From positions 78,551 through 142,550 of the IMG/VR virus record IMGVR_UViG_3300022562_001204: a stretch of DNA of 64,000 nucleotides; one strand, 5' to 3'. The notes beneath the pieces were generated by a model. The model made no database searches and was not told where the DNA came from. It saw nothing but the letters and a program-made list of their open reading frames with translations. The position numbers were made by a program, and so were the translations under genes. Positions 57-56,562 of this stretch are shown one piece after another; position 1 is the stretch's first letter, and every line of letters starts with the position of its first letter. Origin of the DNA: a virus (taxonomy: Duplodnaviria > Heunggongvirae > Uroviricota > Caudoviricetes).

Positions 57-521
57 TTAGGAACCGGACCCACGAGCCCTTAAGAACTCCATCATCACGG
101 TATCGTAGACCCGCTTGTTCATACGCCGTTCGTTCGGGACATCCCAGAGCTTGATCTCCGACTCCATGATAGAGTCCTTAATAGCGGTGGCCATCCCGAC
201 GGATCGGGAGATTCCCATGTCGCAGTGGATGAGGAGATCATCGATCTTTCCGTGATAGGCCAAGACGAAGGACACCACCCGGATCGCCATATGCCGATCG
301 AAGAGCACGGGTTCTTTATCGCCCCACCTGGCTTTGTACAGCCAGTCATCAGGGTCGATATCTCCAATGTCCCAGAAGTTCAGGTAGAGTGTATCGGCCC
401 AGCCGATCATCTTGATGGAGCTGGGGTAGTCGTGGTCGGGTGTGCCAATGGAGACGGCGGCTGTCTGGGTGTTTGGCTCCCAATCAACCGCTCTCTCCCG
501 CGACATGGCATGGATCAGCAT
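57..521 (-). CDS. protein-tyrosine / dual-specificity phosphatase (CX5R active-site loop HCDMGISRS)
   Basis: 154-aa ORF ending in TAA. The motif VLAYHGKIDDLLIHCDMGISRSVGMATAI matches the DUSP/PTP P-loop HCxxGxxRS. An A/T box plus SD lies upstream (533..544). Confidence 0.65.
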   Translation of the reverse strand: MLIHAMSRERAVDWEPNTQTAAVSIGTPDHDYPSSIKMIGWADTLYLNFWDIGDIDPDDWLYKARWGDKEPVLFDRHMAIRVVSFVLAYHGKIDDLLIHCDMGISRSVGMATAIKDSIMESEIKLWDVPNERRMNKRVYDTVMMEFLRARGSGS

Positions 522-21678: not shown

Positions 21679-21691
21679 GGGGGCTTCCTTA

Positions 21692-22234
21692 TTAAAGAGG
21701 TGCTGGGGGTGGTTCTAATGGCGTTAGAGCATTCTGAGCCATACTCTGTTTCCAGGCTCGGTATGCACTTTCAGCGATTGGAGAGACGGCGTTCCAGACC
21801 TTCCTGTCGGTTTCTGATCTGATTGCAGAAGGTGGAAACCAGTTCTGCTCAGTCAGTTTGACGACATATGGCTTCATACTTACGCTGGGGTACGAAACAT
21901 ATGACCTCAAACACCCTGGGCCCTCCATTTGCAATGCCAGAAGGCTAATTGACAGGAAGGGAGTGCCATATGGACTGTAAGGCACACTTGTCAAGGCGTA
22001 TACGACGATACTGCCATCGGCATAGACTGTGTACCATACGCCATATGGCACAGTTACTGAGTAGATGGACGCATCAAAGATGCAGAGTAAAGGTTCGCCA
22101 CTCATCTCGTTGATCAGAACCCCGGCATACTTCCCGAGATACGCACCGTACTGTTCCTTGAAGATCTGGTGCAGTTCACCGGTGAGCTCGAAGAAGCCAG
22201 AGACCACTGGAGGTCCGGATTGGTCACTTCTCAT
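21692..22234 (-). CDS. hypothetical protein (180 aa)
   Basis: ATG at 22234 after CATATTTAAAGGAG. TAA stop. Confidence 0.5.
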   Translation of the reverse strand: MRSDQSGPPVVSGFFELTGELHQIFKEQYGAYLGKYAGVLINEMSGEPLLCIFDASIYSVTVPYGVWYTVYADGSIVVYALTSVPYSPYGTPFLSISLLALQMEGPGCLRSYVSYPSVSMKPYVVKLTEQNWFPPSAIRSETDRKVWNAVSPIAESAYRAWKQSMAQNALTPLEPPPAPL

Positions 22235-22239
22235 AACTA

Positions 22240-22253
22240 CTCCTTTAAATATG
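22240..22253 (-). promoter_or_regulatory. CATATTTAAAGGAG gene-start motif before 21692..22234
   Basis: Plus strand reads ctcctttaaatatg, 3' of the hairpin at 22258..22279. Confidence 0.35.
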
Positions 22254-22285
22254 TAAGGGGTAGTCCCTATGGGACTACCTTGTGG

Positions 22286-23398
22286 TCAGGCCAGCTTCTT
22301 GATCCAGGGCGGGCACTCTTGTTCCGTTACCTTGATGGCGGTCGACGGGTCGAACAGGCATTCATGCAGCAAGATGCTCCCGCCGTGCTGGGCGATCGTT
22401 TCCGATGCTGCCTGGACGGTCCTGGGGATCAGCACTACCCTCAGCCCCAGAGGGGGCTGGGCCAGGATATGACAGATATCCCAGTCAAAGTAGCGTCCTG
22501 TCGAATAGACCGCCACTCCGTTGACCAATGGGGAGGTATCCACCTCAGTGGGTAATGCCCGCCAATCCGAGGAGGACCCATAGGAACTGCGTCGTTCGTC
22601 CTCGGTGATCGGCCAGAGCGACAGCGGGGACATGAAGGCATGGTTCGCATCCCCTCGGAACAACCCAGGAAGGTGGACACGAGTACGGACACCTTCGGGG
22701 GATACGAAGTCCAAGAACTCATGATACTGCATGGCGGGCCTGATGTTCAGAGGGAGCTGTCGAAGGTCGACCGTTTCGTCTTCTGGTTCGGATTTCATTG
22801 TATCGAGATGTTCGGACTTGCTATGCTCTAGACAAATATGTTTCAAGTAGTCGAGCGAGACGCGAGGAATAGTATTACGGTAGAAGCGCCGAAGCCCGGC
22901 ACTGACCTCATAGTTACGCCATCCATGCGCCTCCGTGGGTACCAGGCCTAGCGGGTCGCAGGTTTGCACATCCCTGATTTTAGCGTAGAACCCGGAGCCA
23001 TCAGTCGTTATGTCGTCGATAACCGCGGTCATACGGAGCCATTTAAACTGATACTCGACCCCGGCGAGATGAGACGTTCCCTTTATCAAAACGTAGATGC
23101 TGAACCGATGTTTCGAATCAACCGTGAAATTGACGTCATAGGTGTTACTTTCGACCCTTTTATCGGCGACCATCATGAGTTCCTGGCCATTTCGAATAGC
23201 TAACTTTCCCACATAGTCCGAGGGTTCCTCATGACACTCCTCGAGTATACGGTCATACTCAGACTTAGTGAGTTTGATCGACCCGATGTATGGTAGGGGT
23301 TCTTTGCAAAGCTCGATGACCTCGGGCTCAGCCCTATCACGGACGTCCTTCTGATACTCTTCATACAGCTTCTTAGAGGTGATGAAACTGTTTTCCAC
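22286..23398 (-). CDS. family-A paralog
   Basis: 370 aa with a GTG start after the TATATAAAGGAG box. The C-terminus reads VSPEGVRTRVHLPGLF...CHILAQPPLGLRVVLIPRT. TGA stop. Confidence 0.5.
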   Translation of the reverse strand: MENSFITSKKLYEEYQKDVRDRAEPEVIELCKEPLPYIGSIKLTKSEYDRILEECHEEPSDYVGKLAIRNGQELMMVADKRVESNTYDVNFTVDSKHRFSIYVLIKGTSHLAGVEYQFKWLRMTAVIDDITTDGSGFYAKIRDVQTCDPLGLVPTEAHGWRNYEVSAGLRRFYRNTIPRVSLDYLKHICLEHSKSEHLDTMKSEPEDETVDLRQLPLNIRPAMQYHEFLDFVSPEGVRTRVHLPGLFRGDANHAFMSPLSLWPITEDERRSSYGSSSDWRALPTEVDTSPLVNGVAVYSTGRYFDWDICHILAQPPLGLRVVLIPRTVQAASETIAQHGGSILLHECLFDPSTAIKVTEQECPPWIKKLA

Positions 23399-23404
23399 GA
23401 GCGA

Positions 23405-23417
23405 CTCCTTTATATAG
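23405..23417 (-). promoter_or_regulatory. CTATATAAAGGAG gene-start motif before 22286..23398
   Basis: Plus strand reads ctcctttatatag, 3' of the hairpin at 23427..23459. Confidence 0.35.
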
Positions 23418-23480
23418 CGCTGCTGACTCCCCTCGGACCTATACCGGGTCCGAGGGGAGTATTGGCTGACTTACTGAATG

Positions 23481-24569
23481 TTACAAGGGGGCGCGAGGTG
23501 TTGAACGGAGTTCGTCCGGCAGTTTCGAAGAGAACGCGCCTGCCCCGGGTATGCCGATGATGAATTGTGTTAAGATCCAGTCCGGAATGTCGCGGATGTC
23601 CATGTTCGGATACTCCTGAGATCTCCCAGGTTTGTTATGCTGAAGCAGGACCGACCTGGATCCAAGCAAACCTGTGACTGCTTGGGTAGTCCTTGGGATG
23701 AGGATGACCCGAAGACCTAACGGAGCCGGTGCGTGGATATGGCAGACTTCGTAGTCGTCGTAGGTCGCCACTCGGTAGAACCGGATACCGCCCCACTCAG
23801 ACAGATCCTCGATATCCGAAAGACGCCGCCATTCTTCGGTCAGACCTGCGTCTTCCTCAGCAGAATGGTGGTAGGCGTTGTTCCGGTAGTCATTGAACAC
23901 AGCCGGCAGGTCGATGCGGCTCCAGGTACCTTCAGGGGAGATGACATCCAGGCTTCCTGTCTCGAATCCTTTCGGTTTAAACCGAAAGGTCCCTCTCAGA
24001 GAGCTCGGACTGTGTGGACGGTTCATATCGGCCACTTCCTTGGCTATGACGGGGTTGAGGTCTTCCACGAGCGTGGCGGCGTCTTTCGGATAAAAGTGAA
24101 AGGGCCTGGATCTTCCAAGATCCTCGATGACGAGAGGTCCTGAGGAACCTTTTTCCACCAACCGAACCTGGGTTGACTCAAGGCCACGATGGATGACGAG
24201 CCAGTACGTCTTCGTCAAGTCGAGTGGTGTATCCATAAGTTTCAGAAAGGCTGCTGTATAAAAGGTCCATTCTCCTGGGGACCTGGTCAGCACCACCCCC
24301 TGACAGACATCTTGAATCGCCATTACGACAGACGAATCAAGAGTAGCATGTTTGAAATCGGGGCGTACGATATTGGTAAGGAGTACCGTCTCGTTCTCCA
24401 GAATACCGATTTTGAACGGACAGGGAATGGGACGGATACCAAAATAGACGTAGAAGTTATGAAGAATAGTTTCAATATGGCGTTTGGGAAGGTGGACGGT
24501 GATCAGACTCCCCTTCTCTTTGTCCGGATTGACCACCGTCTTGACAACGCGGATCTCATTACTATTCAT
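23481..24569 (-). CDS. family-A paralog
   Basis: 362 aa. The C-terminus reads ISPEGTWSRIDLPAVF...CHIHAPAPLGLRVILIPRT. TAA stop. Confidence 0.5.
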   Translation of the reverse strand: MNSNEIRVVKTVVNPDKEKGSLITVHLPKRHIETILHNFYVYFGIRPIPCPFKIGILENETVLLTNIVRPDFKHATLDSSVVMAIQDVCQGVVLTRSPGEWTFYTAAFLKLMDTPLDLTKTYWLVIHRGLESTQVRLVEKGSSGPLVIEDLGRSRPFHFYPKDAATLVEDLNPVIAKEVADMNRPHSPSSLRGTFRFKPKGFETGSLDVISPEGTWSRIDLPAVFNDYRNNAYHHSAEEDAGLTEEWRRLSDIEDLSEWGGIRFYRVATYDDYEVCHIHAPAPLGLRVILIPRTTQAVTGLLGSRSVLLQHNKPGRSQEYPNMDIRDIPDWILTQFIIGIPGAGAFSSKLPDELRSTPRAPL

Positions 24570-29353: not shown

Positions 29354-29680
29354 TTAGAAGTGACGACGTCTGACGATTTTGGTCATATCCTCGTTATATT
29401 CCAGGACGATGACGTGGGATATCGGCAGCTCCATACTGTTCTTCGGCGTATATACGAACCTGAGGGTCTTTTGCCGGGGCTTGGATTCAATCAGCGTGAT
29501 GGAACTGGCCGCCTCTAATGGACCCTTAGGGTCCTCCTTCAGGAGTCGGAGCCAGTTCTCTACCATTGCTTTGAAGAACTTCCAGTCGCCTTGCAGAGCT
29601 TCGAAGGTTTCTGCGTCAGCTTCCTTCTCAAGAATCCGGAAAATGTCTTGGTATCGAGTCGTCAGGGGTCGGTTCATCAC
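29354..29680 (-). CDS. hypothetical protein (108 aa)
   Basis: TAA stop. Confidence 0.45.
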   Translation of the reverse strand: MMNRPLTTRYQDIFRILEKEADAETFEALQGDWKFFKAMVENWLRLLKEDPKGPLEAASSITLIESKPRQKTLRFVYTPKNSMELPISHVIVLEYNEDMTKIVRRRHF

Positions 29681-30161
29681 TTGGTTCCTTGTGAGGGATT
29701 ACCACTGGTACTTCCTTCTTATCCCAGGGTCGAACTTCGATCAGCTGATCAGCACGGCTACCATGATTCGGGGGAATGCTTGGGATAAAGTAAATCGGGA
29801 ATGCCCAGAATAAGAGGATGAAGGTAAACAACACCAGGGTCTGTAGGTTGGCCCTGCCTCGTCTGATCGTGATCCCGCTGTTCAGGATGTACAGAATAAG
29901 GGGTGGGTATACCGTGAAGACCAGCCCCGAGATCGTCAGACCCGCCACGATCAGGGTACTGCCAAAGGTACCGAGGCTCCAGAGGAAAGGGAAGTATATG
30001 AGCAGGATCCCCCCAAGCCCTGTCCCTATCAATACAACTACTGGGTTCCTTAGTCTTGAGGGTTTCCATACACCGAAGTACAGCCAGTACATGGAGTAAA
30101 GCACCACGACCGTAGTGAGGGTCGTGGTGAACTCCACCAAGGTTGCGTTACTGACAGCCAT
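29628..30161 (-). CDS. polytopic membrane protein (177 aa)
   Basis: Several hydrophobic helices (VVVLYSMYWLYFGV, VVVLIGTGLGGILLIYFPFLW, LIVAGLTISGLVF, LVLFTFILLFWAFPIYFI). GGATATAAGGAAACCAC before the ATG. TGA stop. Confidence 0.5.
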   Translation of the reverse strand: MAVSNATLVEFTTTLTTVVVLYSMYWLYFGVWKPSRLRNPVVVLIGTGLGGILLIYFPFLWSLGTFGSTLIVAGLTISGLVFTVYPPLILYILNSGITIRRGRANLQTLVLFTFILLFWAFPIYFIPSIPPNHGSRADQLIEVRPWDKKEVPVVIPHKEPSDEPTPDDSIPRHFPDS

Positions 30162-30177
30162 GTGGTTTCCTTATATC

Positions 30178-30729
30178 CTAATGCAGTCTCCCCTTAGAAC
30201 GCAACTGAACTACCGTGGACGGGTTAGGCATGTACACGGGTCGTTCGTTCATGAATGCGTACGTCGGATGAGGCGTGCGGGAGTTGATGTGGACCCTGGT
30301 GAACAGAGTGCGATCTGGAGAGACCTCCAGGACCAGGGAGTACACCAGAGTGGCGTGCTCAGTTTCGTCAGAGGGCTGATAATAGAAGTTCAAACCCATG
30401 CCTGGGGTAGCCGGATCGTGGGTCGTTCGAGGTCCCGGAGGGACGTAGTACCTTGGTCTCTCCAGGAGGATCGTCAGATTAACCAGCCTGCGCGTAGCTT
30501 CTGGGGTCAGCTTTCCTCTTGAGATCTCCCCTCGGTTCGGGAGATCATTCAATATGAACGCGATCACCTCAGCACAGCGGTCGCTTATTTCTTTTCGAAT
30601 GGGTGGGGGTGAGTGATCCATAACGTAAACCAGGGCGGCGTTGCCTTTCAGGCAGACGCGGTCTTCCAGGTTGAGGTCGTGTACCACAGGGTCGGCGTCA
30701 ATGCCGTACTTCACAATCATGTCGTCCAT
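30178..30729 (-). CDS. hypothetical protein (183 aa), TAG stop
   Basis: ORF ending in TAG at 30178..30180. The next in-frame stop (TAA) lies 9 codons further on. Confidence 0.5.
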   Translation of the reverse strand: MDDMIVKYGIDADPVVHDLNLEDRVCLKGNAALVYVMDHSPPPIRKEISDRCAEVIAFILNDLPNRGEISRGKLTPEATRRLVNLTILLERPRYYVPPGPRTTHDPATPGMGLNFYYQPSDETEHATLVYSLVLEVSPDRTLFTRVHINSRTPHPTYAFMNERPVYMPNPSTVVQLRSKGRLH

Positions 30730-30790
30730 GGGGTTGCTCCAATTACAAGTGTAGGTGGTCCGTCTTCCATAACGGCAAACATCAAAAAAA

Positions 30791-30822
30791 GAGTCCCTGC
30801 TCCCAATAGGGGCAGGGACTCC
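30791..30822. terminator. stem-loop gagtccctgc...gcagggactc
   Basis: 10-bp stem with a 12-nt loop. Confidence 0.35.
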
Positions 30823-30841
30823 TCTTTGTCACGCAGAGGTA

Positions 30842-31504
30842 TTATTCCTCAGGTCCGATGAACTGGACCTTGGTTCGGTACTTCGGGTAGATTCGGAGGA
30901 AGTCCTCCAAGTACAGAGAGATCTCTCTCCTGAGCTCGAAGCTCTCTACCCGAATCATGATCTGGCTGGGCATCTTGGCGTGTCCGATCATGACTTTGTC
31001 CAGAATCCACTTCAGAGCGTCGAAGGCATCGTCCTGTAGGGACATCCCGAATTTCCTGAGAGAGGGGGAGTCTGGCGTACTGCTGTCCAGGTACACGATC
31101 TCGAACACGTCGTTCAGATAGAGTCGAGTCATGTGCCGGTAGGACCGAAAAATGGTCCACTCACTGGGTGCAGATAGTACCCGAAAGAGACTCTCCTTGT
31201 CTCTCTGGGTGCCGAAGTACATCGCCTTAATGGCAGTCTCCTTGACCGGTTTGATGAAGGGGGTGAGATCGGAGCGACGGAAGCTGTCCTTGTGTTCCAG
31301 GGACCCGGCTACGACTTTTGCGTAAACCTCTTCCGTCTCAGAGTGGATGATGTACACGCTGGAGAGCGCATGATGCGGATCAGCCGCGGTGAGGAACCGA
31401 CGGACTTCGCAGTCCGTGCCGTACCCCAGAATGTTTAACAGTTTCTCATCATCTAACAGGATCTCCTGAGGGATCTTGCTGGATGCAGTCGCGACATCGT
31501 CCAT
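30842..31504 (-). CDS. hypothetical protein (220 aa)
   Basis: TAA stop. Confidence 0.5.
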   Translation of the reverse strand: MDDVATASSKIPQEILLDDEKLLNILGYGTDCEVRRFLTAADPHHALSSVYIIHSETEEVYAKVVAGSLEHKDSFRRSDLTPFIKPVKETAIKAMYFGTQRDKESLFRVLSAPSEWTIFRSYRHMTRLYLNDVFEIVYLDSSTPDSPSLRKFGMSLQDDAFDALKWILDKVMIGHAKMPSQIMIRVESFELRREISLYLEDFLRIYPKYRTKVQFIGPEE

Positions 31505-31546
31505 ATGATCCTCCTAGATCTCTACCCCATTACGAGACTTCCCCGG

Positions 31547-32407
31547 TCAGTTGACCGATTTGACCGGTGTGACACCAGGTTGGCCGATGAAGAACGTGCA
31601 GTTTGACTTGCCATCGCCGCAGATGGTGTTCATCATCTTGATGCGTTCCAGCTCAATGAACTGCTCGGTCGACATGTTCATGGCTTCACGATAGGCATTG
31701 TCCGCCGCAGCACGGCTTTCTTCGGCATCCCGTCGCCCGTCTTCCGCCAGCTTGCGCTGCTTTTCCGTCATGATGCGTTGCTGTTCCTGGGCCGTCTGGA
31801 CACGCTGCGTCAGAATGGCATCCGGGGGATTGGCTTTGCCGACGGTCACGTTCAGGAGTTTCACCGGGATCTTGGTCTCTGCCAGATAGCTAGAGAGGGA
31901 TTCGGTGATCTCGTTGTCGATGGCCTCCACGGCGGTGGTGTCGATGGCCGTCTCGTTCATGCCGTGTTTCTTGACCGCGTCACGGACACGATTGGCGAAG
32001 GCCTGTTCGACGTTCTGCTTGTACCAGTCCGGACCAAAGTCCCGGATCAGCCCGACAGAGTCAGTCACCTGCAAGCGGATGGCCGTATGGAAGTCCAGCG
32101 GCACACCGTCCGAGGTCATGATGTCCTTGAACTCGGCGTCCATCTGCTGCGGGTAGATCGTCACATACACCGATTTGGTCGAAGCCCAAGTGAAGGAACG
32201 ACCCGTTTCCACCGGGAACTTCTGGATACCGCCATGTCCAAAGAAGTACGGCTTGTCGATCAGCACCGCTTCCTGGCCCTGGTCTGGCGCCACGACCTTG
32301 AAGGAGCACAGGAGAACGATGAAGCCAATCACTGCGAGAATGGCGATACTGATATTCCGCATCGTGCAGTACTTGTCGAAGAACGACGGTTCATCATAAC
32401 GAGACAT
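31547..32407 (-). CDS. SPFH / band-7 (HflK/C-stomatin-prohibitin-like) membrane-anchored protein
   Basis: One N-terminal TM helix (ISIAILAVIGFIVLLCSF) is followed by AVLIDKPYFFG... and a C-terminal AE-rich coiled segment (QRVQTAQEQQRIMTEKQRKLAEDGRRDAEESRAAADNAYREA), typical of SPFH domains. TTCTATAAAAGGAAAGAACCAGATGTCT before the ATG. TGA stop. Confidence 0.55.
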   Translation of the reverse strand: MSRYDEPSFFDKYCTMRNISIAILAVIGFIVLLCSFKVVAPDQGQEAVLIDKPYFFGHGGIQKFPVETGRSFTWASTKSVYVTIYPQQMDAEFKDIMTSDGVPLDFHTAIRLQVTDSVGLIRDFGPDWYKQNVEQAFANRVRDAVKKHGMNETAIDTTAVEAIDNEITESLSSYLAETKIPVKLLNVTVGKANPPDAILTQRVQTAQEQQRIMTEKQRKLAEDGRRDAEESRAAADNAYREAMNMSTEQFIELERIKMMNTICGDGKSNCTFFIGQPGVTPVKSVN

Positions 32408-32414
32408 CTGGTTC

Positions 32415-32428
32415 TTTCCTTTTATAGA
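32415..32428 (-). promoter_or_regulatory. CTCTATAAAAGGAA gene-start motif before 31547..32407
   Basis: Plus strand reads ttccttttatagag. Confidence 0.3.
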
Positions 32429-32492
32429 GTCGTGAATGAAACCGGGCTGGCTTCATGTAGAGTGTATCTGACTCAGTTTTTATTAGAACGGT

Positions 32493-32906
32493 TTAGGCAG
32501 CTTTGGCAGGGTCTAGCGGTACGACCACCCAGGTATACGCCACCTCGGAGATCCCCTCCTTCGAGGGATGGGGATCCCAGACCAGGCTACCTGCCCTGTA
32601 GACGACCATGTGGTAATGTCCCCTCGAGGTAGGACCCGACGCCAGGTACAGCCCGTCGTAGACCCGATCCCCATGTTGCATGACCGCCTGATAGCCCTTG
32701 GAGAGGAACCATGTCTCGAACATCTCCCAGAACACCCCGGCATCCTTCGTGAGGTTGGCAAAGTCAGGAACCTCTGAGAGTGGAATACCCATGATGGTCG
32801 CCACAGAGGCCTGTGTACAGTTACCATCCAGCCCTTCACTGCCATGGAGAATGGTCTGGGGCTGGCAACGGTCCTGAGGAAGCAAGTAAGAAGGAGTCTC
32901 GTTCAT
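32493..32906 (-). CDS. putative papain-like (Cys/His) peptidase-fold protein
   Basis: 137 aa. GNCTQASVATIMG carries the candidate nucleophile Cys, and GHYHMVVY supplies a downstream His. Low confidence. ATGA overlap with the vWA gene. Confidence 0.35.
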   Translation of the reverse strand: MNETPSYLLPQDRCQPQTILHGSEGLDGNCTQASVATIMGIPLSEVPDFANLTKDAGVFWEMFETWFLSKGYQAVMQHGDRVYDGLYLASGPTSRGHYHMVVYRAGSLVWDPHPSKEGISEVAYTWVVVPLDPAKAA

Positions 32907-34126
32907 GTGATCGCATCCATGAGTTCGCCGATAAAGGTGGTCAGCTCAGCCGCGGTCGGGGAAGCAATGAAGATACCGTCGGTCTGTGTCGCCAGTGCGC
33001 TAAGGGACGTGGTATTGATACCATCACTGAATCCCAGGGCGTAGATGGAAATATCATTAGCCTGGCAATAGGCGATGACCTCCGCCTGGGTGTGAGTACC
33101 ATCACCTTGACCGTCCGTCATGATCAGGATCGCCCTACGGTTACCACGACCTGTCAGGTCAGTCGCTGCCTGATAGAGTGCGTCCATCACAACCGTTCCG
33201 TAGATCAGACTGGTGACCGTGGCGAGACTGGTGAGGGCGGTGGTCTTGTCATCCGTAAAGTCTTGGATCTGCGTGACGCTGCCATTCAGGGTATACAGAG
33301 CGACCTCGTCGTCATAATCCAGAGCATTGATTGCCGAGGAGGCGGCACTGCGCTCACTGGTCAATTCTGAAGAGGTCAGAGACTGACTGTTGTCAATAAT
33401 GATCGCTAGGGATGCTGGTCCGATGGGCTGGCTGCTGACGATGGTGATGTCCGCGACTGTATCGCCAGCGACACACCCGCCCCAGATCTTCGTGATACTG
33501 AGGGTAAAGTCCTCATCGACCTCCCCTGTGTTGGTATCGGCGATGATGTTGATGGGGACCAGCTTATCGCCTTCTTCCCCATCTGCCCAGACAATGGTCT
33601 GGGTCGTGGAGACGTAGTCCTCACCCTGGATGGCCGTCCCATCTGCGGTGACCACCATGGCTTTCGCTTCCCCATTGCTACCGCCAGAGCGGCGAATGGT
33701 GACATTCATGGTGCCGACATCATCAGAGGTGCTGTAAGAAGTCTCGGGAAACCCGAGCATACCCTGGTAGCTGAACTTGTTCAGTAGGGGGAAGGTGACA
33801 TTGGACAGTACTGAGATACTGACCCAGACGTTCCCCTCGGTTCCTGAGAGTCCCTGCTTGTTCTCGAGCCGGTAGGGGTGGATGTCCCCGACTTCTGAGA
33901 ACTCCGTCACGTACATCCTTAACCTTAGATACCGGCCTTCGCTGGTGTCCGTGATCTCAAACCCGTACCGCATCCCCGTACGCGGGGTAATGAATCGATA
34001 GGTGATGCTGCTGGTGTCCAGCCGAATCCTTTCGTAGAGGTAGAAATACTCGATCATGAGATCCACCAGGTACTGGGTCTCATTTTGGTCTGGGTAAAAC
34101 TTGTTAAACCCGGTCAGTGAGTACAT
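32903..34126 (-). CDS. von Willebrand factor A (MIDAS) domain protein with Calx-beta-like domain
   Basis: 407 aa. A central Calx-beta-like stretch (NVTIRRSGGSNGEAKAMVVTADGTAIQGEDYV...GEVDEDFTLSI) precedes a C-terminal vWA domain with the DxSxS MIDAS motif (LAIIIDNSQSLTSSE) and ILIMTDGQGDG. TGA stop. Confidence 0.6.
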   Translation of the reverse strand: MYSLTGFNKFYPDQNETQYLVDLMIEYFYLYERIRLDTSSITYRFITPRTGMRYGFEITDTSEGRYLRLRMYVTEFSEVGDIHPYRLENKQGLSGTEGNVWVSISVLSNVTFPLLNKFSYQGMLGFPETSYSTSDDVGTMNVTIRRSGGSNGEAKAMVVTADGTAIQGEDYVSTTQTIVWADGEEGDKLVPINIIADTNTGEVDEDFTLSITKIWGGCVAGDTVADITIVSSQPIGPASLAIIIDNSQSLTSSELTSERSAASSAINALDYDDEVALYTLNGSVTQIQDFTDDKTTALTSLATVTSLIYGTVVMDALYQAATDLTGRGNRRAILIMTDGQGDGTHTQAEVIAYCQANDISIYALGFSDGINTTSLSALATQTDGIFIASPTAAELTTFIGELMDAIT

Positions 34127-34232
34127 GGTATTATTAAAGGAGTAGGGTCATACCATCTCCTCCTGGATTCGACGAAAAATATAGCAGTCTGATATACCCT
34201 CCTCTGGCCAGGCCAGAGGAGGGTATATACCG

Positions 34233-34910
34233 TCAGAGCAGCCAGTGCTTCGGGATGTTCCGCAGGTTGGCCTTCTTCTGAACCTCGGGACGCGGGTCCA
34301 GTGCTGCCGAGAGTGCTGCCAGCCCAGGGCGGGCGTCACCAATCAGAGGACCACCGGCATGGAGCTCGGCCCAGACCTCATCCCACTTCAACTTCTGACC
34401 CTTGCCGAAGTCGGAAGCATAGAGCTGAAGCAGCGGAACGCCAATGAGTTCGATCTCTCGCCTCACGAGGTGTGAGAAGTTGCTGTTCCGCATGGCGGCC
34501 AGCAAGGTCGGGAGTTTCTTATTGACCTGCGCCTTCTCGGCAGACTGCTCGGCCAGACGGATATAGAGGCGATCGGCCTCAAGTTCCTCGGCCAGCCGGT
34601 TCTCGGCCTCGATGGCCTGGGCTGTCTTGATCACCTTGTAGTTGACGACGACCATCTTCCTCGCGTGAGGCGGGGCTTTTGGTACGTCGATCACCTTGTA
34701 AAGACTGTCAATCTCGACAATGTCCCCGACGGAGGCGGTATCGCGCGGCAGAAGCGGATACCAGGACGACGACACTTCCTTACCGAACCGAGGATCGACC
34801 TCGATCCGGATCTGAGGGACCTGCAACGCGGCCTCTTTCCAGGCCTCGTGTCCCTCGACGGGATACAGCTCGGGACGACCTTTGTAACCACTGACGATAC
34901 GAAACTGCAT
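34233..34910 (-). CDS. hypothetical protein (225 aa)
   Basis: ATG after the CATATATAAAGGAGTGGC box. TGA stop. Confidence 0.5.
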   Translation of the reverse strand: MQFRIVSGYKGRPELYPVEGHEAWKEAALQVPQIRIEVDPRFGKEVSSSWYPLLPRDTASVGDIVEIDSLYKVIDVPKAPPHARKMVVVNYKVIKTAQAIEAENRLAEELEADRLYIRLAEQSAEKAQVNKKLPTLLAAMRNSNFSHLVRREIELIGVPLLQLYASDFGKGQKLKWDEVWAELHAGGPLIGDARPGLAALSAALDPRPEVQKKANLRNIPKHWLL

Positions 34911-34917
34911 GATGCCA

Positions 34918-34931
34918 CTCCTTTATATATG
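34918..34931 (-). promoter_or_regulatory. CATATATAAAGGAG gene-start motif before 34233..34910
   Basis: Exact ctcctttatatatg. Confidence 0.4.
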
Positions 34932-35010
34932 TCGTTCAAAAAGAGAGCCGGAAATGGAAGTTCTCGTCAGGAATCGAGACCGAACCTCTCTTCGTGTTTC
35001 ACCAACTTCC

Positions 35011-35412
35011 CTAGATCTCATACCCGATGAGGTTGTGGCCGTCATCAAGGAGCTTCGCCAGTTCGATGAGCTCTCGCATGTCGATGGTGAAGTCAAAATC
35101 GATGTGCTTCAACCATTCGTCAATGTTGGCACCGAGGTGCTGCGCAAGGGCCCTGAGCACATCCGCTGGGTCGTTCGTGAAAGCGATCGAGAGGTTGAGG
35201 TACTTCCTGGCTGTTTCAACGAGGGCCTCAGTGTAACTCTCCCAATCGACAGGTGTCTCCTCATCGATGATAGCAAAGTAGTACTCATCGGGGAAGATAG
35301 GCTGCTCCTCTTCAAATGAAAATGGATTGAAGAGGGTCCGGATCATCGGGGTGATGACCGCAGGGGTACCGAAACTCAAGAGGCCTGTGGTGATGTTGGT
35401 GCTATAAGACAC
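35011..35412 (-). CDS. acidic protein, short tandem paralog of 35594..36247 (TAG stop)
   Basis: 133 aa with a GTG start. It is about 60% identical to the N-terminal 130 aa of its neighbour (GTPAVITPMIRTLF, DEYYFAII, DGHNLIGY). The TAG stop falls exactly where the longer paralog continues. Confidence 0.5.
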   Translation of the reverse strand: MSYSTNITTGLLSFGTPAVITPMIRTLFNPFSFEEEQPIFPDEYYFAIIDEETPVDWESYTEALVETARKYLNLSIAFTNDPADVLRALAQHLGANIDEWLKHIDFDFTIDMRELIELAKLLDDGHNLIGYEI

Positions 35413-35593
35413 GGTGTTATTCCTCTGTATAGCGTCAATAAAAATAGAGCCAGCTCCTTGCCGAGCTGGCTCAGTCCACCTACCCAGGATCGGGCGGTGG
35501 TTGCGGAATAAAAAGCGGCGACGGGCTCGGGATTAGAAGCTTCGACGCCGAAGAGCATCCGGTCTCGTGGAGAGTATATCTCGCCGTAGTTCT

Positions 35594-36247
35594 TTAAGAG
35601 CTGAGGTTGAACTTCTTCAGGACCTCCTTACGGATACCCTCATCGAAGATACTGTCGGTGATGGACTTGAAGTGAGCGTCCAGCACCTTCACGACCTCGT
35701 CGAGCCCGGTACCCAGCGCAACGTCGAGGTCTTCGGCGAGCTCCTTCCCGGTGTAAGTTGAGGTTGTTCGCAGAAGGTGTTGGGAGTAGTGCTGACTCCA
35801 ACCCCCGAACCCGAGGTATTCAGGCTGAGAGCTCCACCAGCTTCCCTGAATGCTGTACCCGATGAGGTTGTGGCCGTCGTTGAGGAGCTTCGCCAGGTCA
35901 AGAACCCAGTGCATTTCGATGCTGTAGTCGAAATCGATTTTCTTCAACCATTCGTCGATGTTGACGCCGACGTGCTGCGCAAGGGCCCTGAACACATCTG
36001 CGAAGTCATCCGTGAGGGTGATCGAGAGCTTGAGGTGTTCCTTGGCTGTTTCGACGAGAGCTTCAGCATAGCCCTCCCACTCGACAGGCGTCTCCTCTCC
36101 GATGATGGCGAAATAATATTCGTCTGGGCTGATGGTCTCCCCTTCTTCAAACAAAAACGGTGTGAAGAGAGTTCGGATCATCGGGGTGATGACCGAAGGG
36201 GTGCCAAACTTAAGAGCGCCGGTGGCGGTGTTATAGCTGTCAGACAT
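35594..36247 (-). CDS. acidic protein, long tandem paralog of 35011..35412
   Basis: 217 aa. ATG after CATATATAAAGGAGTAACACC. TAA stop. Confidence 0.5.
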   Translation of the reverse strand: MSDSYNTATGALKFGTPSVITPMIRTLFTPFLFEEGETISPDEYYFAIIGEETPVEWEGYAEALVETAKEHLKLSITLTDDFADVFRALAQHVGVNIDEWLKKIDFDYSIEMHWVLDLAKLLNDGHNLIGYSIQGSWWSSQPEYLGFGGWSQHYSQHLLRTTSTYTGKELAEDLDVALGTGLDEVVKVLDAHFKSITDSIFDEGIRKEVLKKFNLSS

Positions 36248-36311: not shown

Positions 36312-36788
36312 TCAGTAGAAACTTTGAGGGTTCTTGAAGCTCTGGTAGTTCAGCAACATCGCAGCGGCAGCATAGACCACCAGGATCCATCCAGACCCGG
36401 CTAATGTCAGGACTCCTGCCAGGACAACCAGGGTATTTCGCATGTACCGTGTCGGGGAATTGTACAGACAGATCACGGAGACTGCCGTCACCATGGCTAC
36501 CACGCGGGCGGTAATGTCCATCGCCACGGCCAGGGGTCCCCAGATGTCTTCACCCACCGTTTGGACCAGAAGCCAGGGAACCATAGCCAGGATCACGGTT
36601 GTCGTGATGAACATCCCGGCGCTGCTGTACAGGGTGGACACCCCGTAGCATCGCTCGTCCAGATAGGCTGACATGGCAGATTTCTGGGAGAAGACGTACT
36701 GGCGCCCGTAGGCCCAGGTCATCAGGACTCCCGACAGGAACAACACCAGCGAGAAACCATTCAACAGAAGCTCAAGAAGCGTGAACAT
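36312..36788 (-). CDS. small polytopic membrane protein 1 of 8 (158 aa)
   Basis: About four hydrophobic helices. TACTATAAGGGAGTATCGCC before the ATG. TGA stop. Confidence 0.5.
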   Translation of the reverse strand: MFTLLELLLNGFSLVLFLSGVLMTWAYGRQYVFSQKSAMSAYLDERCYGVSTLYSSAGMFITTTVILAMVPWLLVQTVGEDIWGPLAVAMDITARVVAMVTAVSVICLYNSPTRYMRNTLVVLAGVLTLAGSGWILVVYAAAAMLLNYQSFKNPQSFY

Positions 36789-36813
36789 GGCGATACTCCC
36801 TTATAGTAATCGC

Positions 36814-37302
36814 TTATGATTCTTTCCACGTGGCGGATTGCCAGCGGAACAGTTGGAGCCGTCCGAGGATGAGGACGGCGATGCTAATGAAGATCAAAGC
36901 GGCGTTAAACGCCAGTAACAAAACCGAACATAACACAACAGCGATTCGACCTTGGCGGGAGAGGTCGAAGTTCAAGCCGACCACAATCCCCGCAATGAGA
37001 GTGGGGATGAGTCGACTCCCCAGAAGCACAGCCTCGACCACGGGGTCGTAGGCCCGCCCACCCAGCAGCTTCCCTGTTGCGTAACACAGTGCGGTCAGAA
37101 ACACCATAGCCCCACACAGCTTGGAGTGGTCCTCCACGATTCGACCAGTCCCCAAAGTCACGTGACCTTCCTTGGTCCGATAAGGGTCTCTCGACACTAC
37201 GTAGGTCATGGTCAGTCCATAGAGCCAGTGAAGCTCAATATAGAGCACCATAGACGCCAGGACTGTGTAGACCACGTAGCTGTTCGAGAAACACTCGTTC
37301 AT
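36814..37302 (-). CDS. small polytopic membrane protein 2 of 8 (162 aa)
   Basis: About four hydrophobic helices. GGAGGGG SD. TAA stop. Confidence 0.5.
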   Translation of the reverse strand: MNECFSNSYVVYTVLASMVLYIELHWLYGLTMTYVVSRDPYRTKEGHVTLGTGRIVEDHSKLCGAMVFLTALCYATGKLLGGRAYDPVVEAVLLGSRLIPTLIAGIVVGLNFDLSRQGRIAVVLCSVLLLAFNAALIFISIAVLILGRLQLFRWQSATWKES

Positions 37303-37303
37303 G

Positions 37304-37780
37304 TCACCCCTCCGTTGTTTGCTTTACCTTACGCCCAATGAGCCCCAAGAACACCACAGCAATGATGGCATTGAGCCAGCTGTATCCCAGTAACCCTATC
37401 GCACAGAACGTTACCAGAATTACCATTCGATTCGGGACTGCCAGGGTGACGTACCAAACCCAGACAATGATGGTCGCGATGCAAGCGATCAGAAGTATGG
37501 TGCTGTACTCGGCAGCCAGTAGAAACCCAGGACTTCCCACGGTAGGATGACCGTAATCAATGACGAGGTAGATCGCGAAATACCCCACGATACAGGCAAG
37601 TAACTGAGGGGCTTTCTTGTATATGTTCTCCCAGCACGCCTGCCTTTGTTTCTCTGGGAATACGACGAGGCTAAACATGTTGTCGAGTCCCGCTTTCAGA
37701 GTGGCTTTCGCTGTAACCAGTGCCGATATGACAAGCAGCAAGCAGAAGAAGTTGACGCTATAATCAAGAACGATGTTCAT
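37304..37780 (-). CDS. small polytopic membrane protein 3 of 8 (~158 aa)
   Basis: The track start lies inside the upstream gene. The ATG at 37780 (MNIVLDYS) follows GGGGAG. TGA stop. Confidence 0.5.
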   Translation of the reverse strand: MNIVLDYSVNFFCLLLVISALVTAKATLKAGLDNMFSLVVFPEKQRQACWENIYKKAPQLLACIVGYFAIYLVIDYGHPTVGSPGFLLAAEYSTILLIACIATIIVWVWYVTLAVPNRMVILVTFCAIGLLGYSWLNAIIAVVFLGLIGRKVKQTTEG

Positions 37781-38243
37781 TTTGCTCCCCAGATCTAAGT
37801 TTTGCGTCGTCTTCACACGACCACGCGAGCACACAGAACCCGACCCCTACCACCAGTACGGTCAGATTCAAGTTAAACATTATCAACGCCCCGACCAGGA
37901 AGACGAACCGAATGAAACGGAACGTCATGAGGTACATGGAGAGAATCGACGCTACCGTGACCCCTGAGAGTAGGTATGCCGACAGTACGGCCACCCTACG
38001 GACGCCCTCGCTCCCGTACCCGGTACCCAGAAGGTTGAGCATCCCAACAGCCGCCAGTGGTAAGAGCATGGATGCGAGAAGCGACCAGCGGGCGTCACTG
38101 ACCAGGGAGTATCCAGGGATACGGAGGTTGAACCGCCCCAACCAGGGTTCTTCTGGAACCAGGTAGTACCGGGTCGCTAGGTATGTAAAGCTCAATGAGC
38201 TCATGAGCAGCATCAAGTACAGCAGGTTAGCGATACTGTCCAT
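37764..38243 (-). CDS. small polytopic membrane protein 4 of 8 (159 aa)
   Basis: The ATG directly abuts the TAG of the upstream gene, in the same frame. AAAAAAAGGAACCGATAG precedes it. TGA stop. Confidence 0.5.
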   Translation of the reverse strand: MDSIANLLYLMLLMSSLSFTYLATRYYLVPEEPWLGRFNLRIPGYSLVSDARWSLLASMLLPLAAVGMLNLLGTGYGSEGVRRVAVLSAYLLSGVTVASILSMYLMTFRFIRFVFLVGALIMFNLNLTVLVVGVGFCVLAWSCEDDAKLRSGEQNEHRS

Positions 38244-38660
38244 CTATCGGTTCCTTTTTTGTGTTGCGAGGTTGTTTTCGATAAACAGGATGGGTAAAAC
38301 GACGGAGAGAGCGATCCCTACGGGGTTACCCAACCACCCAAGAATCACACCAGCCGGCATGAGGAGTATTTTGGTCGAGGTTTTAACCTCGAATTCAGAA
38401 CCCACGACAGCGATACTGACCAAGAATCCCTGAACACACGTCACGATGCCAACGAAGTGAAGGAAAGGCGTGTGTCCTGCCAGGTCGGTGACCAGTGCGA
38501 TGGCCAGTAGTGGAAGACCACCCACTAAGAGACAAACGACCTGATGTTTGTTACGCCGAACCTCAAAGTTGAAGAAGATCCCGTTGAGGACCACCCAGAA
38601 CGTTCCAAGCAGACTCACTGCTTGGAACGTCAGAAGTACCATGCTTTCTTGCTGGGTCAC
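38244..38660 (-). CDS. small polytopic membrane protein 5 of 8 (138 aa), TAG stop
   Basis: The stop is TAG at 38244..38246, immediately followed in frame by the next ATG. Confidence 0.5.
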   Translation of the reverse strand: MTQQESMVLLTFQAVSLLGTFWVVLNGIFFNFEVRRNKHQVVCLLVGGLPLLAIALVTDLAGHTPFLHFVGIVTCVQGFLVSIAVVGSEFEVKTSTKILLMPAGVILGWLGNPVGIALSVVLPILFIENNLATQKRNR

Positions 38661-39091
38661 GAGATCTTTGACCTGGTCTTGAAGTTCTCCATACTGACGG
38701 CTATCAGCATCGCTGATGCGATGAGCGCCAGTGTCACGGGATTCGAACCCGCTGCGAAGTGGGTGTAGTAGGACAGGGGCAGGCTAGCGATAACCAGCCC
38801 CGCACCGACGATCCGAAGACCCCGACTGTAGACACATCTGACGGTAAGTAGGGCCAACATGGTCGCGAACGAAAGGGAAATGCTGAACGCACCCAGCATC
38901 AGCGACAAGTTGGCAGCTGGGTCCTTGACCTGAAGGTAAATCAGCCAGTAGGCAGGATACAGGCCAACAACGACCAGCGCGGACAGCACGATGTTGGGTT
39001 TTGAGATCTGGGGACTGATGATCGCCATGGAGACCACGCTGACAAGAGCCAGCATGGCGACACCCAGTGCGAGGTGATGAAGATCATTCAT
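38657..39091 (-). CDS. small polytopic membrane protein 6 of 8 (~144 aa)
   Basis: The track ORF has a long Arg/Pro-rich N-terminal extension that is not believable. The ATG at 39091 (MNDLHHLALGV) follows CCAAGGAGTACCAGC. TGA stop. Confidence 0.5.
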   Translation of the reverse strand: MNDLHHLALGVAMLALVSVVSMAIISPQISKPNIVLSALVVVGLYPAYWLIYLQVKDPAANLSLMLGAFSISLSFATMLALLTVRCVYSRGLRIVGAGLVIASLPLSYYTHFAAGSNPVTLALIASAMLIAVSMENFKTRSKIS

Positions 39092-39512
39092 GCTGGTACT
39101 CCTTGGATTTGGTCCAACCGAAAAACACAACAATACAGACACAGACAAGGACGGGGACTGGGATGCCCTTGATGGCAAACACCAGGGAGACCCCCAGCCC
39201 AATGACTCGATACACAACAGCCAGCCGCTCTCGCGTGGCGAATACGGCAACCGCCATGGCGCCGCTGGTCCAGATACCGACCTGGGTCGTGGCCGACGCC
39301 AGCGAGGCGACCCCTGTACCGAGGTCATACATCCCACCCAGAGCCATCAAGGGACTCAGTACGCCCCCTATGTTCAGCCGTTCGATGATTGTGAACCTGG
39401 GTTTCTGGCTGGCGGGTCTCAAAATGTAAAAGACGGTCAGATAGATCAAGCTCGCAGTCATCACCACCAGCAGCACAGCATCTATCACGAAGAAGAGGGC
39501 GGTATCGTCCAT
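39084..39512 (-). CDS. small polytopic membrane protein 7 of 8 (~142 aa)
   Basis: The ATG at 39512 (MDDTALFFVID) follows CAAAAGGAAACTCACC. TGA stop. Confidence 0.5.
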   Translation of the reverse strand: MDDTALFFVIDAVLLVVMTASLIYLTVFYILRPASQKPRFTIIERLNIGGVLSPLMALGGMYDLGTGVASLASATTQVGIWTSGAMAVAVFATRERLAVVYRVIGLGVSLVFAIKGIPVPVLVCVCIVVFFGWTKSKEYQHE

Positions 39513-43247: not shown

Positions 43248-43505
43248 TCAGCTGGCCAGGTAGACCCGCTTCAATGTCGAGGTTTCACCTACATTACTGT
43301 ACATGGTCACCAACTTCTGGGTGGTCAAGTCGTAATAAAGATAGGCTTTTGATGTGTCCCCAGTAACGTCATTCTGATCGGTGATGGTATACACCCCTGA
43401 TCCAGAGCTCAACGGAACCATGGTAAAACGTTTCACTGTGAAACTCACTGGGTTCGGAGCGATGGTGATGTCCTGAACCAGCGAAGTATAACCGAGCGTA
43501 TCCAT
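43248..43505 (-). CDS. small protein downstream of fibre gene, copy 1 (candidate fibre assembly/chaperone)
   Basis: 85 aa. It is about 65% identical to 44561..44818 (shared MDTLGY...GDTSKAYLYYDLTTQ.LVT.YSNV.ETSTLKRVYLA) and is coupled to the upstream gene through GGAGGTGAT-ATG. Confidence 0.5.
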   Translation of the reverse strand: MDTLGYTSLVQDITIAPNPVSFTVKRFTMVPLSSGSGVYTITDQNDVTGDTSKAYLYYDLTTQKLVTMYSNVGETSTLKRVYLAS

Positions 43506-43506
43506 A

Positions 43507-44553
43507 TCACCTCCAGGGTCCGGTGATGTCGATCATGGCGTATCCTTGACCGACCCCTACATTCGAACTCGAATTGGTAACCCAGGTGCTTGTGTTGATA
43601 TAGCTAGATATCCCAACGATCATGAAGACCCGGTCTGTCATCCCTGTCACGTTAGTGAGGAGAATGTCGGTACCTGGCGACGCAGTAAGTTGGTCGTATA
43701 ATCCAGGGACAGCACCTACAATACGAGTGGTGGCCTCGGTTGGGATCTCTACCACATACACGGGTCTCGCAATGACACCAACGCCTTGTGAGTTCGGAAC
43801 TCCTAGTGAGTACCGTCGATATCCAAGACCGTTGTTGAGATAATCATCAATGTCAGTTGATGTGTTAATTAAACCTCTTGCAAAATCACTGGTGAGGTGC
43901 GCGTAGGGATTTACGCTAGAGCCGTCATACAGTTTCCAGGTCCTAGCGACTCTAGAATTAGTGCTGCTATTACTGATATAGGAAAGTCGCCCGTACCGAT
44001 TGTAAACACCCGGGAGGTTAGCTGCCGGGTCGAGATCGGTAATATCCCCATAAGTAGTTGCTGCATATGGGTGATCCCCAAAGGCAACCAAATCCCCGAA
44101 GAAGTACCCAGCGGCGAGTGTTGGGACGTCGGCATCCGGGTATGTGAAGAGATGAAAGCAATACTCGTCAGCGAATAACTTCCAGGGTCTCGTGGTCGTT
44201 GAGAGCTCGTCTGACTTGGTGATCGGAGACCCCTGGGTGTAGAGGGCGAGACCGTAGGCATTGGTGCCTGTGTCGATATCGGTCATCGTCTCATACGCGA
44301 TCCAACCCGCTTTCATGGCAGTATACGTGGCAGAAAATGCCGCGTCATCCTGAACACGGAGGTAGTGACGGTAACCCAGCAACGGTCTGAAGACCGCTAC
44401 GTTCGTCCCGGTGAACTCCTCGGACCAGCCGACAGGAGACTTTGACCCATACCCGTCTATCAGGCAGGCCCTGAGCACATCGAGTAGCGTACCGGCGGTA
44501 CCGCTGAGGGTAGGCGCGTCAGTGTCATCAGAATAATAGGCATATACCGTCAT
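43507..44553 (-). CDS. tail-fibre / receptor-binding-like protein, copy 1
   Basis: 348 aa. The N-terminal ~150 aa is near-identical to that of 44820..45863, with a divergent centre and a conserved C-terminal IDITGPWR. TGA stop. Confidence 0.55.
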   Translation of the reverse strand: MTVYAYYSDDTDAPTLSGTAGTLLDVLRACLIDGYGSKSPVGWSEEFTGTNVAVFRPLLGYRHYLRVQDDAAFSATYTAMKAGWIAYETMTDIDTGTNAYGLALYTQGSPITKSDELSTTTRPWKLFADEYCFHLFTYPDADVPTLAAGYFFGDLVAFGDHPYAATTYGDITDLDPAANLPGVYNRYGRLSYISNSSTNSRVARTWKLYDGSSVNPYAHLTSDFARGLINTSTDIDDYLNNGLGYRRYSLGVPNSQGVGVIARPVYVVEIPTEATTRIVGAVPGLYDQLTASPGTDILLTNVTGMTDRVFMIVGISSYINTSTWVTNSSSNVGVGQGYAMIDITGPWR

Positions 44554-44560
44554 AGTCGCT

Positions 44561-44818
44561 TCATCCTGCTAGGTAAACACGTTTAAGTGTGGAGGTCTCA
44601 GCGACGTTGCTGTAGATCGTCACCAGTTGTTGGGTGGTCAGGTCATAGTAGAGGTACGCCTTGGACGTATCTCCGGTCCCTGAGTCCACGTCCTTGGCCG
44701 AGAAAGCCAGTGATCCATCCGCCAACGGCACCACGGTCGGCACCTTTCTCAGAAATTCCACGGGACACTCTGACTGGAGTGGTTGGATAAAGAGTGAGTC
44801 GTACCCAAGCGTATCCAT
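44561..44818 (-). CDS. small protein downstream of fibre gene, copy 2
   Basis: 85-aa paralog of 43248..43505. Confidence 0.5.
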   Translation of the reverse strand: MDTLGYDSLFIQPLQSECPVEFLRKVPTVVPLADGSLAFSAKDVDSGTGDTSKAYLYYDLTTQQLVTIYSNVAETSTLKRVYLAG

Positions 44819-44819
44819 A

Positions 44820-56444: not shown

Positions 56445-56562
56445 ACGTGTTTCCTCGAATCCAATCCCGAATAAATAAAGATTCCAAAAGATTGCCCGAC
56501 CCCTGCCCTGACATAAAGACAGTCACACACCCGGACTATTGGGTGTGTGACTGTCCCTGTCG

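Follow-up and report, generated by a model that had tools for sequence, protein, structure and literature searches.

We analysed a 64,000-nucleotide (nt) stretch of viral DNA (hereafter the window; positions 78,551 to 142,550 of the Caudoviricetes record IMGVR_UViG_3300022562_001204 in IMG/VR), in which three neighbouring open reading frames (ORFs) on the minus strand encode a vWA/Calx-beta protein, a putative cysteine peptidase of 137 amino acids (aa) and an SPFH/Band-7 protein. Together with a fourth, orphan gene they make up one apparent transcription unit that runs from an upstream hairpin to an intrinsic terminator (Table 1). An initial annotation had suggested that the three genes form a module acting on host envelope proteins or host defence complexes, an idea that, if upheld, would have meant a previously undescribed phage system directed at the host envelope. 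The explanation that we favour, and consider reasonably probable, is that the unit consists of co-expressed accessory genes that were acquired independently and do not constitute a conserved three-part system. The evidence says that the trio is a chance neighbourhood of such genes. The domains themselves are of known kinds, and the peptidase, judging from a structural model, appears to add to the papain/C39-like fold a new member that is an orphan by sequence and is distributed very widely in phages.

Co-occurrence of the three genes in other genomes

We searched all ORFs within 5-6 kb of each peptidase homologue with phmmer and hidden Markov models and found an SPFH or vWA gene at none of the loci (0/83 viral and 0/45 bacterial, or 0/128 overall). 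Likewise, a Pfam census of the 150 immediate neighbours at 75 distinct peptidase loci contained no VWA and no Band_7 domain; the domains present were those of methylases, helix-turn-helix (HTH) proteins, a terminase, an Acb1 and a JAB domain. When the neighbours were clustered, common ones were found only among closely related, near-identical PaBG-like contigs. The converse comparison gave the same result, as the SPFH loci of phages Tunturi_3, X1, DLP_3, RTH11 and PaBG were flanked by unrelated hypothetical genes and held a peptidase or vWA gene in 0/5 cases. PaBG encodes homologues of both the peptidase (gp227) and the SPFH protein (gp287), and these lie 56 kb apart. The closest homologue of the vWA protein has a different coupled neighbour, described below.

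The proposal of a three-part module was not upheld by these comparisons, and phage SPFH proteins recur as solitary genes without a fixed partner. A defence-related context had also been suggested, and eight proteins of the region gave no match to a defence system in PADLOC-DB at E<=0.01.

One recurrent neighbour of the C39-like gene was observed, limited to the PaBG lineage: in PaBG (L006, 182225-182626) and in PaBG-like metagenomic contigs (L015-L020, L029) the gene comes directly, and start/stop-coupled, after a gene annotated as encoding a prohead core protein protease. The main text of the PaBG paper mentions neither gp227 nor gp287 and so supplies no virion-proteomics evidence for either (PMC7412058).

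The 137-aa protein and its relatives

The initial annotation had noted a Cys…His arrangement reminiscent of papain-like or C39 peptidases in the 137-aa protein. The arrangement itself proved to be conserved and was placed as in papain by structure prediction, whereas no sequence or profile match to C39 was obtained. The putative catalytic residues are Cys30 (32817..32819), His99 (32610..32612) and Asp111 (32574..32576), and Gln17 may be the oxyanion-hole residue. Among 83 homologues His99, Asp111, Pro112 and His113 were invariant, and Gln17, Gly28, Asn29 and Cys30 were conserved in at least 90%. An AlphaFold2 (AF2) model built from the 83-sequence alignment was confident (predicted local distance difference test (pLDDT) 94.7, predicted template modelling score 0.89). 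In it, Cys30 begins a helix (30-39), His99 lies within a strand (98-104) and Asp111 falls just past another (107-110), a predicted placement that is the canonical papain arrangement. The list of structures obtained for this model was led by C39 domains (PCAT1 9.3, ComA 9.1 and an AMS/PCAT double-glycine protease 9.0), with PeiR (8.7), staphopain (8.4), the C39 toxin StbD-CT (7.6), AvrRpt2 (7.0) and Josephins (~6) lower down. The same fold was present in BFVD among uncharacterised proteins of CcrColossus, phiRSL1, Mycobacterium phage Lemuria and Caulobacter phage Sansa.

The protein is a soluble, stand-alone ORF product that belongs to phrog_5845, a group of unknown function, and it had no sequence or profile match in Pfam, NCBIfam, PADLOC or the PDB. 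On the strength of the model we describe it as a C39-like papain-fold peptidase by structure that is not a member of C39 by sequence. Like the C39 domains of PCAT1 and ComA (PF03412, PF13529), it has its presumed nucleophile Cys at the N-terminus of the central helix, its His on a beta-strand and an Asp 12 residues past the His, within a 'DP' motif. It differs from them in having no significant sequence similarity and no Foldseek match, in the position of the candidate Gln (13 residues ahead of the Cys as opposed to ~6 in C39), in the additional invariant His113 and in being phage- and prophage-borne. Another difference is that no ABC transporter is fused or adjacent to it and no gene for a double-glycine leader substrate is evident; Pfam detected no ABC transporter domain among the 150 neighbours at 75 peptidase loci or within the window.

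Relatives were numerous. A profile search recovered 248, and an exhaustive search returned 7,846 clusters at 50% identity with E<=1e-3, 4,272 of them with E<=1e-10. By tblastn, homologues were found in 32 phage records, including Caulobacter jumbo phages, PaBG, Noxifer and phages of Xanthomonas, Acinetobacter and Arthrobacter; the family was further present at 271 IMG/VR loci and at 45 bacterial genome loci that range from Rhizobiales to Streptomyces, Acidobacteriota and Planctomycetota. A Rosetta-stone search of 20 longer members (up to 672 aa) gave no informative fused Pfam domain. The family is very large, phage- and prophage-borne across many bacterial phyla, and has no Pfam model. A compact cysteine peptidase that sequence methods leave unannotated is in this way given a predicted papain/C39-like fold. 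Its family spans thousands of phage and prophage gene clusters, which recommends it as a concrete subject for biochemical studies of the conflict between phage and host.

Weighing a lineage-specific partnership

Several observations weigh against the reading of independently acquired accessory genes, one of them a C39-like peptidase. All three genes appear to be on a single transcript, and start/stop coupling joins the vWA gene to the peptidase gene, which leaves room for a partnership specific to this lineage. No close relative of the phage was found among sequenced genomes, and it was in other lineages that co-occurrence was looked for and not found. In cellular operons SPFH genes do pair with proteases (NfeD/STOPP-stomatin; FtsH-HflK/C), so that the theme of the initial annotation is not far-fetched. 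As to the peptidase itself, no Pfam peptidase family was detected in any of the 83 relatives at E<=5, and a Foldseek search of the model against the PDB returned noise and no match with E<0.2. Alignment by hhalign to the ComA peptidase domain (the sequence used is 100% identical to 8hf7_A) was not significant (E 0.061, probability 0.9%); its sole aligned segment puts Cys30 on the catalytic Cys17 of ComA.

A lineage-specific module would have the vWA MIDAS (metal ion-dependent adhesion site) bind a host envelope or defence protein, the coupled peptidase cleave this target, and an SPFH cage localise or shield the reaction at the inner membrane. We regard such a module as unlikely. It would account for the single hairpin-to-terminator unit, for the ATGA overlap of the vWA and peptidase genes and for a neighbourhood rich in membrane proteins, and pairings of SPFH proteins with proteases and of vWA domains with peptidases are known, the latter for example as a vWA-metallopeptidase fusion that accompanies MoxR in jumbo phages (PMC7824862). 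These points are countered by the absence of co-occurrence at the peptidase and SPFH loci, the distance between the PaBG homologues, the different coupled neighbour of the closest vWA homologue and the lack of a PADLOC match. The ATGA overlap, correctly reported in the initial annotation, joins the TGA stop of the vWA gene to the ATG of the 137-aa gene. An identical 4-nt overlap is found in 5/72 co-oriented neighbouring gene pairs of the window, and an overlap of any length in 14/72. Because such overlaps are common in the window, the ATGA is weak evidence of functional coupling.

A nearly unique vWA/Calx-beta fusion

Both domains that had been proposed for the 407-aa protein, a vWA domain with a DxSxS MIDAS and a Calx-beta-like beta-sandwich, were confirmed by profile searches. 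Pfam VWA (PF00092) matched residues 240-398 (32933..33409; 53.3 bits against a cut-off of 23.8, E 5e-14), VWA_2 was also above its cut-off, and an NCBIfam VWA subfamily domain matched with 5e-13. The MIDAS is complete by sequence (D245-N-S247-Q-S249, with the DxSxS at 33380..33394; G310-T311; T337-D338-G339), and all of its residues were invariant in an alignment of three vWA/Calx-beta proteins. Pfam Calx-beta (PF03160) matched residues 121-213 (33488..33766; 49.2 bits against a cut-off of 27, E 6.6e-13), and the sequence matches in the PDB were the Ca-binding domains of the Na/Ca exchanger NCX1 (best 1.8e-9, 3us9). Residues 1-119 (33770..34126) form an orphan N-terminal region that matched nothing. 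The AF2 model of this protein was poor (pLDDT 50 overall, 34-66 across the vWA domain, with the N-terminal 119 residues unmodelled); the order of secondary-structure elements in its low-confidence vWA part is compatible with a Rossmann-like alpha/beta fold, and its Calx-beta part is a beta-sandwich (pLDDT 64-86).

Close relatives were rare. No phage homologue was found by tblastn, and scans of IMG/VR and metagenomes with the single sequence found no relatives; a scan with the three-sequence alignment retrieved generic Calx-beta proteins only. The same architecture was present in no more than two metagenomic proteins above the 40% identity level (48% identity), and in both the coupled downstream gene begins MQPISKIKKKKPTG... 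and lacks the Q-T...G-N-C signature of the peptidase. The closer of them, on an AT-rich metagenomic contig (L092 1544-1702, L093 921-964), has extra N-terminal Calx-beta repeats, and TAATG couples its gene to an ORF whose product is rich in lysine and looks like a coiled coil (MQPISKIKKKKPTG...). Since this nearest homologue is coupled to an unrelated ORF, the vWA/Calx-beta fusion travels with different partners. Judged by sequence comparison, the fusion appears essentially, or nearly, unique to this uncultured jumbo phage; it is documented here together with the recurrence of phage SPFH genes as solitary genes.

From what is known of the two families, the MIDAS metal site would bind proteins and the Calx-beta domain would bind Ca2+. 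Hydropathy analysis gave no signal peptide and no transmembrane (TM) segment in the 407-aa protein, and because it has no export signal it would act in the cytoplasm or be packaged into the virion. The Calx-beta domain resembles those of Na/Ca exchangers and of bacterial and cyanobacterial surface proteins in its Pfam and NCX1 CBD1/CBD2 matches and its acidic DEDF-type motif; it differs from them in being present as a single copy, without an export signal and fused to a vWA domain.

The second outcome, packaging, is the basis of another explanation, in which the vWA/Calx-beta protein is a virion part (a decoration, an adhesin or an ejected internal protein) and the genes around it are non-structural and unrelated to it. 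Domains of the Calx-beta and vWA types are characteristic of extracellular adhesins, the extra Calx-beta repeats of the nearest homologue are in keeping with this, phage proteins enter the virion without signal peptides, and the window does hold genes for head and internal proteins of the phiKZ type as well as duplicated tail genes. The vWA gene, however, is surrounded by orphan and membrane ORFs; the closest gene recognisable as a tail gene is ~9 kb away and the head genes are ~27 kb away, and the protein had no PHROG structural match and no phage homologue; its AF2 model was too poor for fold comparison. On balance we find a structural role improbable and retain the reading of an accessory gene.

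Two known types of phage vWA protein were also considered, namely the vWA-metallopeptidase that pairs with a MoxR AAA+ ATPase in jumbo phages and the TerF/TerY-type proteins (PMC7824862). The likeness is that a jumbo phage encodes, beside a peptidase gene, a vWA domain whose MIDAS is complete. Unlike in the MoxR pair, the window has no MoxR ATPase, and in place of a fused metallopeptidase there is a cysteine enzyme encoded separately; unlike in either type, a Calx-beta domain and an orphan N-terminal region come ahead of the vWA domain. The MoxR-vWA reading was rejected because none of the 73 window ORFs belongs to an AAA or MoxR family, and the Ter-type reading because the partner Ter genes are absent from the window.

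Possible roles of the peptidase

We infer that the 137-aa protein would be a soluble cytoplasmic endopeptidase with a Cys30/His99/Asp111 triad and a papain fold closest in shape to C39. C39 enzymes cut site-specifically after Gly-Gly, and by analogy its action during infection would be to clip one or a few particular proteins of the host or the phage, as opposed to carrying out bulk degradation. A precedent for a free C39 domain acting on host proteins in the cytosol is the stand-alone toxin domain of StbD/CdiA-CT type, in which StbD-CT inactivates cytosolic GyrB and ParE at a Gly-Gly motif (bioRxiv 10.64898/2026.05.07.723447).

Extending this analogy, the family could comprise proteases dedicated to host takeover or counter-defence that clip particular host proteins after Gly-Gly, with the MIDAS-vWA protein of the start/stop-coupled upstream gene recruited here as an adaptor that captures the target. 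Possible targets would be topoisomerases, as for StbD-CT, or the ubiquitin-like conjugates of bacterial defence systems. We give this scenario a rather small chance of being correct.

The 137-aa protein might also be a peptidoglycan amidase or endopeptidase (NlpC/P60-, CHAP- or Pei-like) that serves lysis or entry, or a non-catalytic binding domain. Papain-fold hydrolases of the cell wall are common in phages (PMC10318531, PMC7824862), but a cell-wall-binding domain, a signal and a TM segment are all lacking in this protein, and its gene has no holin or spanin gene beside it. A single lytic transglycosylase-type domain was found among the neighbours at 75 loci, and the strict conservation of the Cys, His and Asp argues against a non-catalytic role; we consider either function very unlikely.

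The SPFH/Band-7 protein

The SPFH/Band-7 identity assigned initially to the 286-aa protein was borne out by matches to Pfam Band_7 (PF01145; residues 43-218, 66.1 bits against a cut-off of 23.6, E 5.4e-18) and to phrog_200 (2.4e-26). Its gene had been placed two genes further on from the peptidase gene and is instead immediately adjacent to it, across an 85-nt spacer that contains no ORF and no convincing structure (z = -1.2). The protein has a single N-terminal hydrophobic anchor at about residues 13-41 (ISIAILAVIGFIVLLCSF; one hydrophobic window, from residues 13-31 onward, with a Kyte-Doolittle value of 1.81) and a charged helical stretch at its C-terminus with two Cys nearby (C263, C270). 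Its phage homologues, from Tunturiibacter, Xanthomonas, Stenotrophomonas and Pseudomonas phages, show 31-46% identity and are annotated as SPFH, band-7 or 'FtsH protease regulator'.

The N-terminal anchor, SPFH domain and charged helical C-terminus are shared with HflK/HflC, QmcA/YbbK and phage SPFH proteins such as PaBG gp287 ('FtsH protease regulator'). In contrast to HflK/HflC, the protein scored well below the HflK equivalog cut-off (TIGR01933; 16.2 bits against 159.4), and a window-wide Pfam census excluding the SPFH gene gave no second Band_7 match, so that the window holds no HflC-like paralogue; it holds no NfeD partner either. We rejected an HflK/C pair on the grounds of the score and the missing paralogue.

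To our knowledge no experimental function has been reported for any phage SPFH protein. By family resemblance the protein would be anchored by its N-terminal helix and would oligomerise on the inner membrane into a ring or cage of the HflK/C or stomatin type (PMC12048511, PMC12624060), and would there modulate some process at the membrane, for instance the access of FtsH or the integrity of the membrane itself. The charge balance around the anchor and the two C-terminal cysteines weakly suggest that the SPFH domain is periplasmic. It would then be separated from the vWA protein and the peptidase, neither of which has an export signal, and this counts, as a weak inference, against the three proteins acting together.

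Layout and boundaries of the unit

The three ORFs of the initial annotation were confirmed on the minus strand with the coordinates it had given. The four genes between the hairpin and the terminator are probably co-transcribed, as judged from their arrangement (Table 1). The hairpin sits directly past the stop of the upstream gene (34233..34910) and folds as RNA with -49.5 kcal/mol (z = -4.6; 0/200 shuffles as good). It is likely the upstream limit of the unit, either terminator-like or a processing hairpin; it is not a canonical terminator, because the U-tract starts ~13 nt past the stem. The mini-ORF of the leader stops 7 nt ahead of the vWA start codon, which has no Shine-Dalgarno sequence of its own, and it may be a leader ORF that permits re-initiation at the vWA gene.

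The product of the fourth and last gene is predicted to be soluble; it had no significant match in Pfam, PHROG, PADLOC or NCBIfam and no TM segment by hydropathy. The terminator begins 15 nt past the stop of this ORF and consists of a 13-bp G+C-rich stem (GAGTCCCTGCCCC / GGAGCAGGGACTC) followed by TTTTTTT.

Table 1. Features of the four-gene unit, in the order of transcription
Feature	Position in window	Strand	Basis
Upstream hairpin, perfect 18-bp inverted repeat	34192..34228	-	Repeat search (100% complementary)
Leader element: Shine-Dalgarno AGGAGGAG (34164..34157), then 5-codon mini-ORF MTLLL* (34151..34134)	34134..34164	-	Direct sequence reading
vWA/Calx-beta gene, 407 aa	32903..34126	-	Pfam, NCBIfam and PDB sequence matches
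C39-like peptidase candidate, 137 aa	32493..32906	-	Conserved residues and AF2 model
SPFH/Band-7 gene, 286 aa	31547..32407	-	Pfam Band_7, phrog_200, hydropathy
Orphan ORF, 220 aa, fourth and last gene of unit	30842..31504	-	ORF list
Intrinsic terminator, canonical	30785..30827	-	Minus-strand sequence, inverted repeat, terminator scan flagging the stem

The phage and its accessory region

The window appears to come from an uncultured jumbo phage whose head genes are of the phiKZ type. Its products include three internal head proteins of this type, a PhiKZ_MCP-like protein and a NAD-dependent DNA ligase, and it carries duplicated tail genes. The 137-aa protein was found in exact copies on a 257,149-bp contig (JGI 3300015263 / Logan SRR14699976). 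Positions 30000-36000 had no near-DNA match in 50,697 phage records, and relatives sought via a tail protein gave remote matches only (<=33% identity).

The ORFs of the surrounding 20-42 kb segment had no family matches. Six consecutive polytopic membrane ORFs (138-226 aa, 4-5 predicted TM segments each) occupy 36312-39337 (-), and a 3-TM ORF lies downstream of the unit at 29628-30161 (-). These seven ORFs, an unusual concentration of membrane proteins around the unit, had no Pfam or PHROG match and no detectable mutual similarity. With its many orphan and membrane ORFs, the segment looks like an accessory, fast-turnover region of a jumbo phage.

Repeated genes were observed at several places in the window. 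Upstream of the unit, two tandem paralogues (35011-35412 and 35594-36247, both -) are 71% identical over 133 aa and share a 300-nt direct repeat at 78%. A conserved 26-nt motif (GACATATATAAAGGAGTGGCATCATG, minus strand) spans the ribosome-binding site and start of the genes beginning at 34910 and 36247. At 20686-24569 (-), three or four adjacent paralogous ORFs with no family match have C-terminal parts that are 25-36% identical. The tail module is duplicated (43248-45863 and 52948-62168, both -), with a two-gene cassette repeated at 61-63% identity; its two 784-aa tail proteins are 39% identical, and a ~190-aa unit of a 380-aa protein recurs about five times inside a 1083-aa protein. In the census of the 73 window ORFs we also observed Peptidase_M78 (ImmA/IrrE-like; 2.6e-18), HTH_31 (1.7e-9) and Laminin_G_3 (2.3e-20) domains, together with weak matches to a dual-specificity phosphatase (57..521) and a BTLCP cysteine proteinase.

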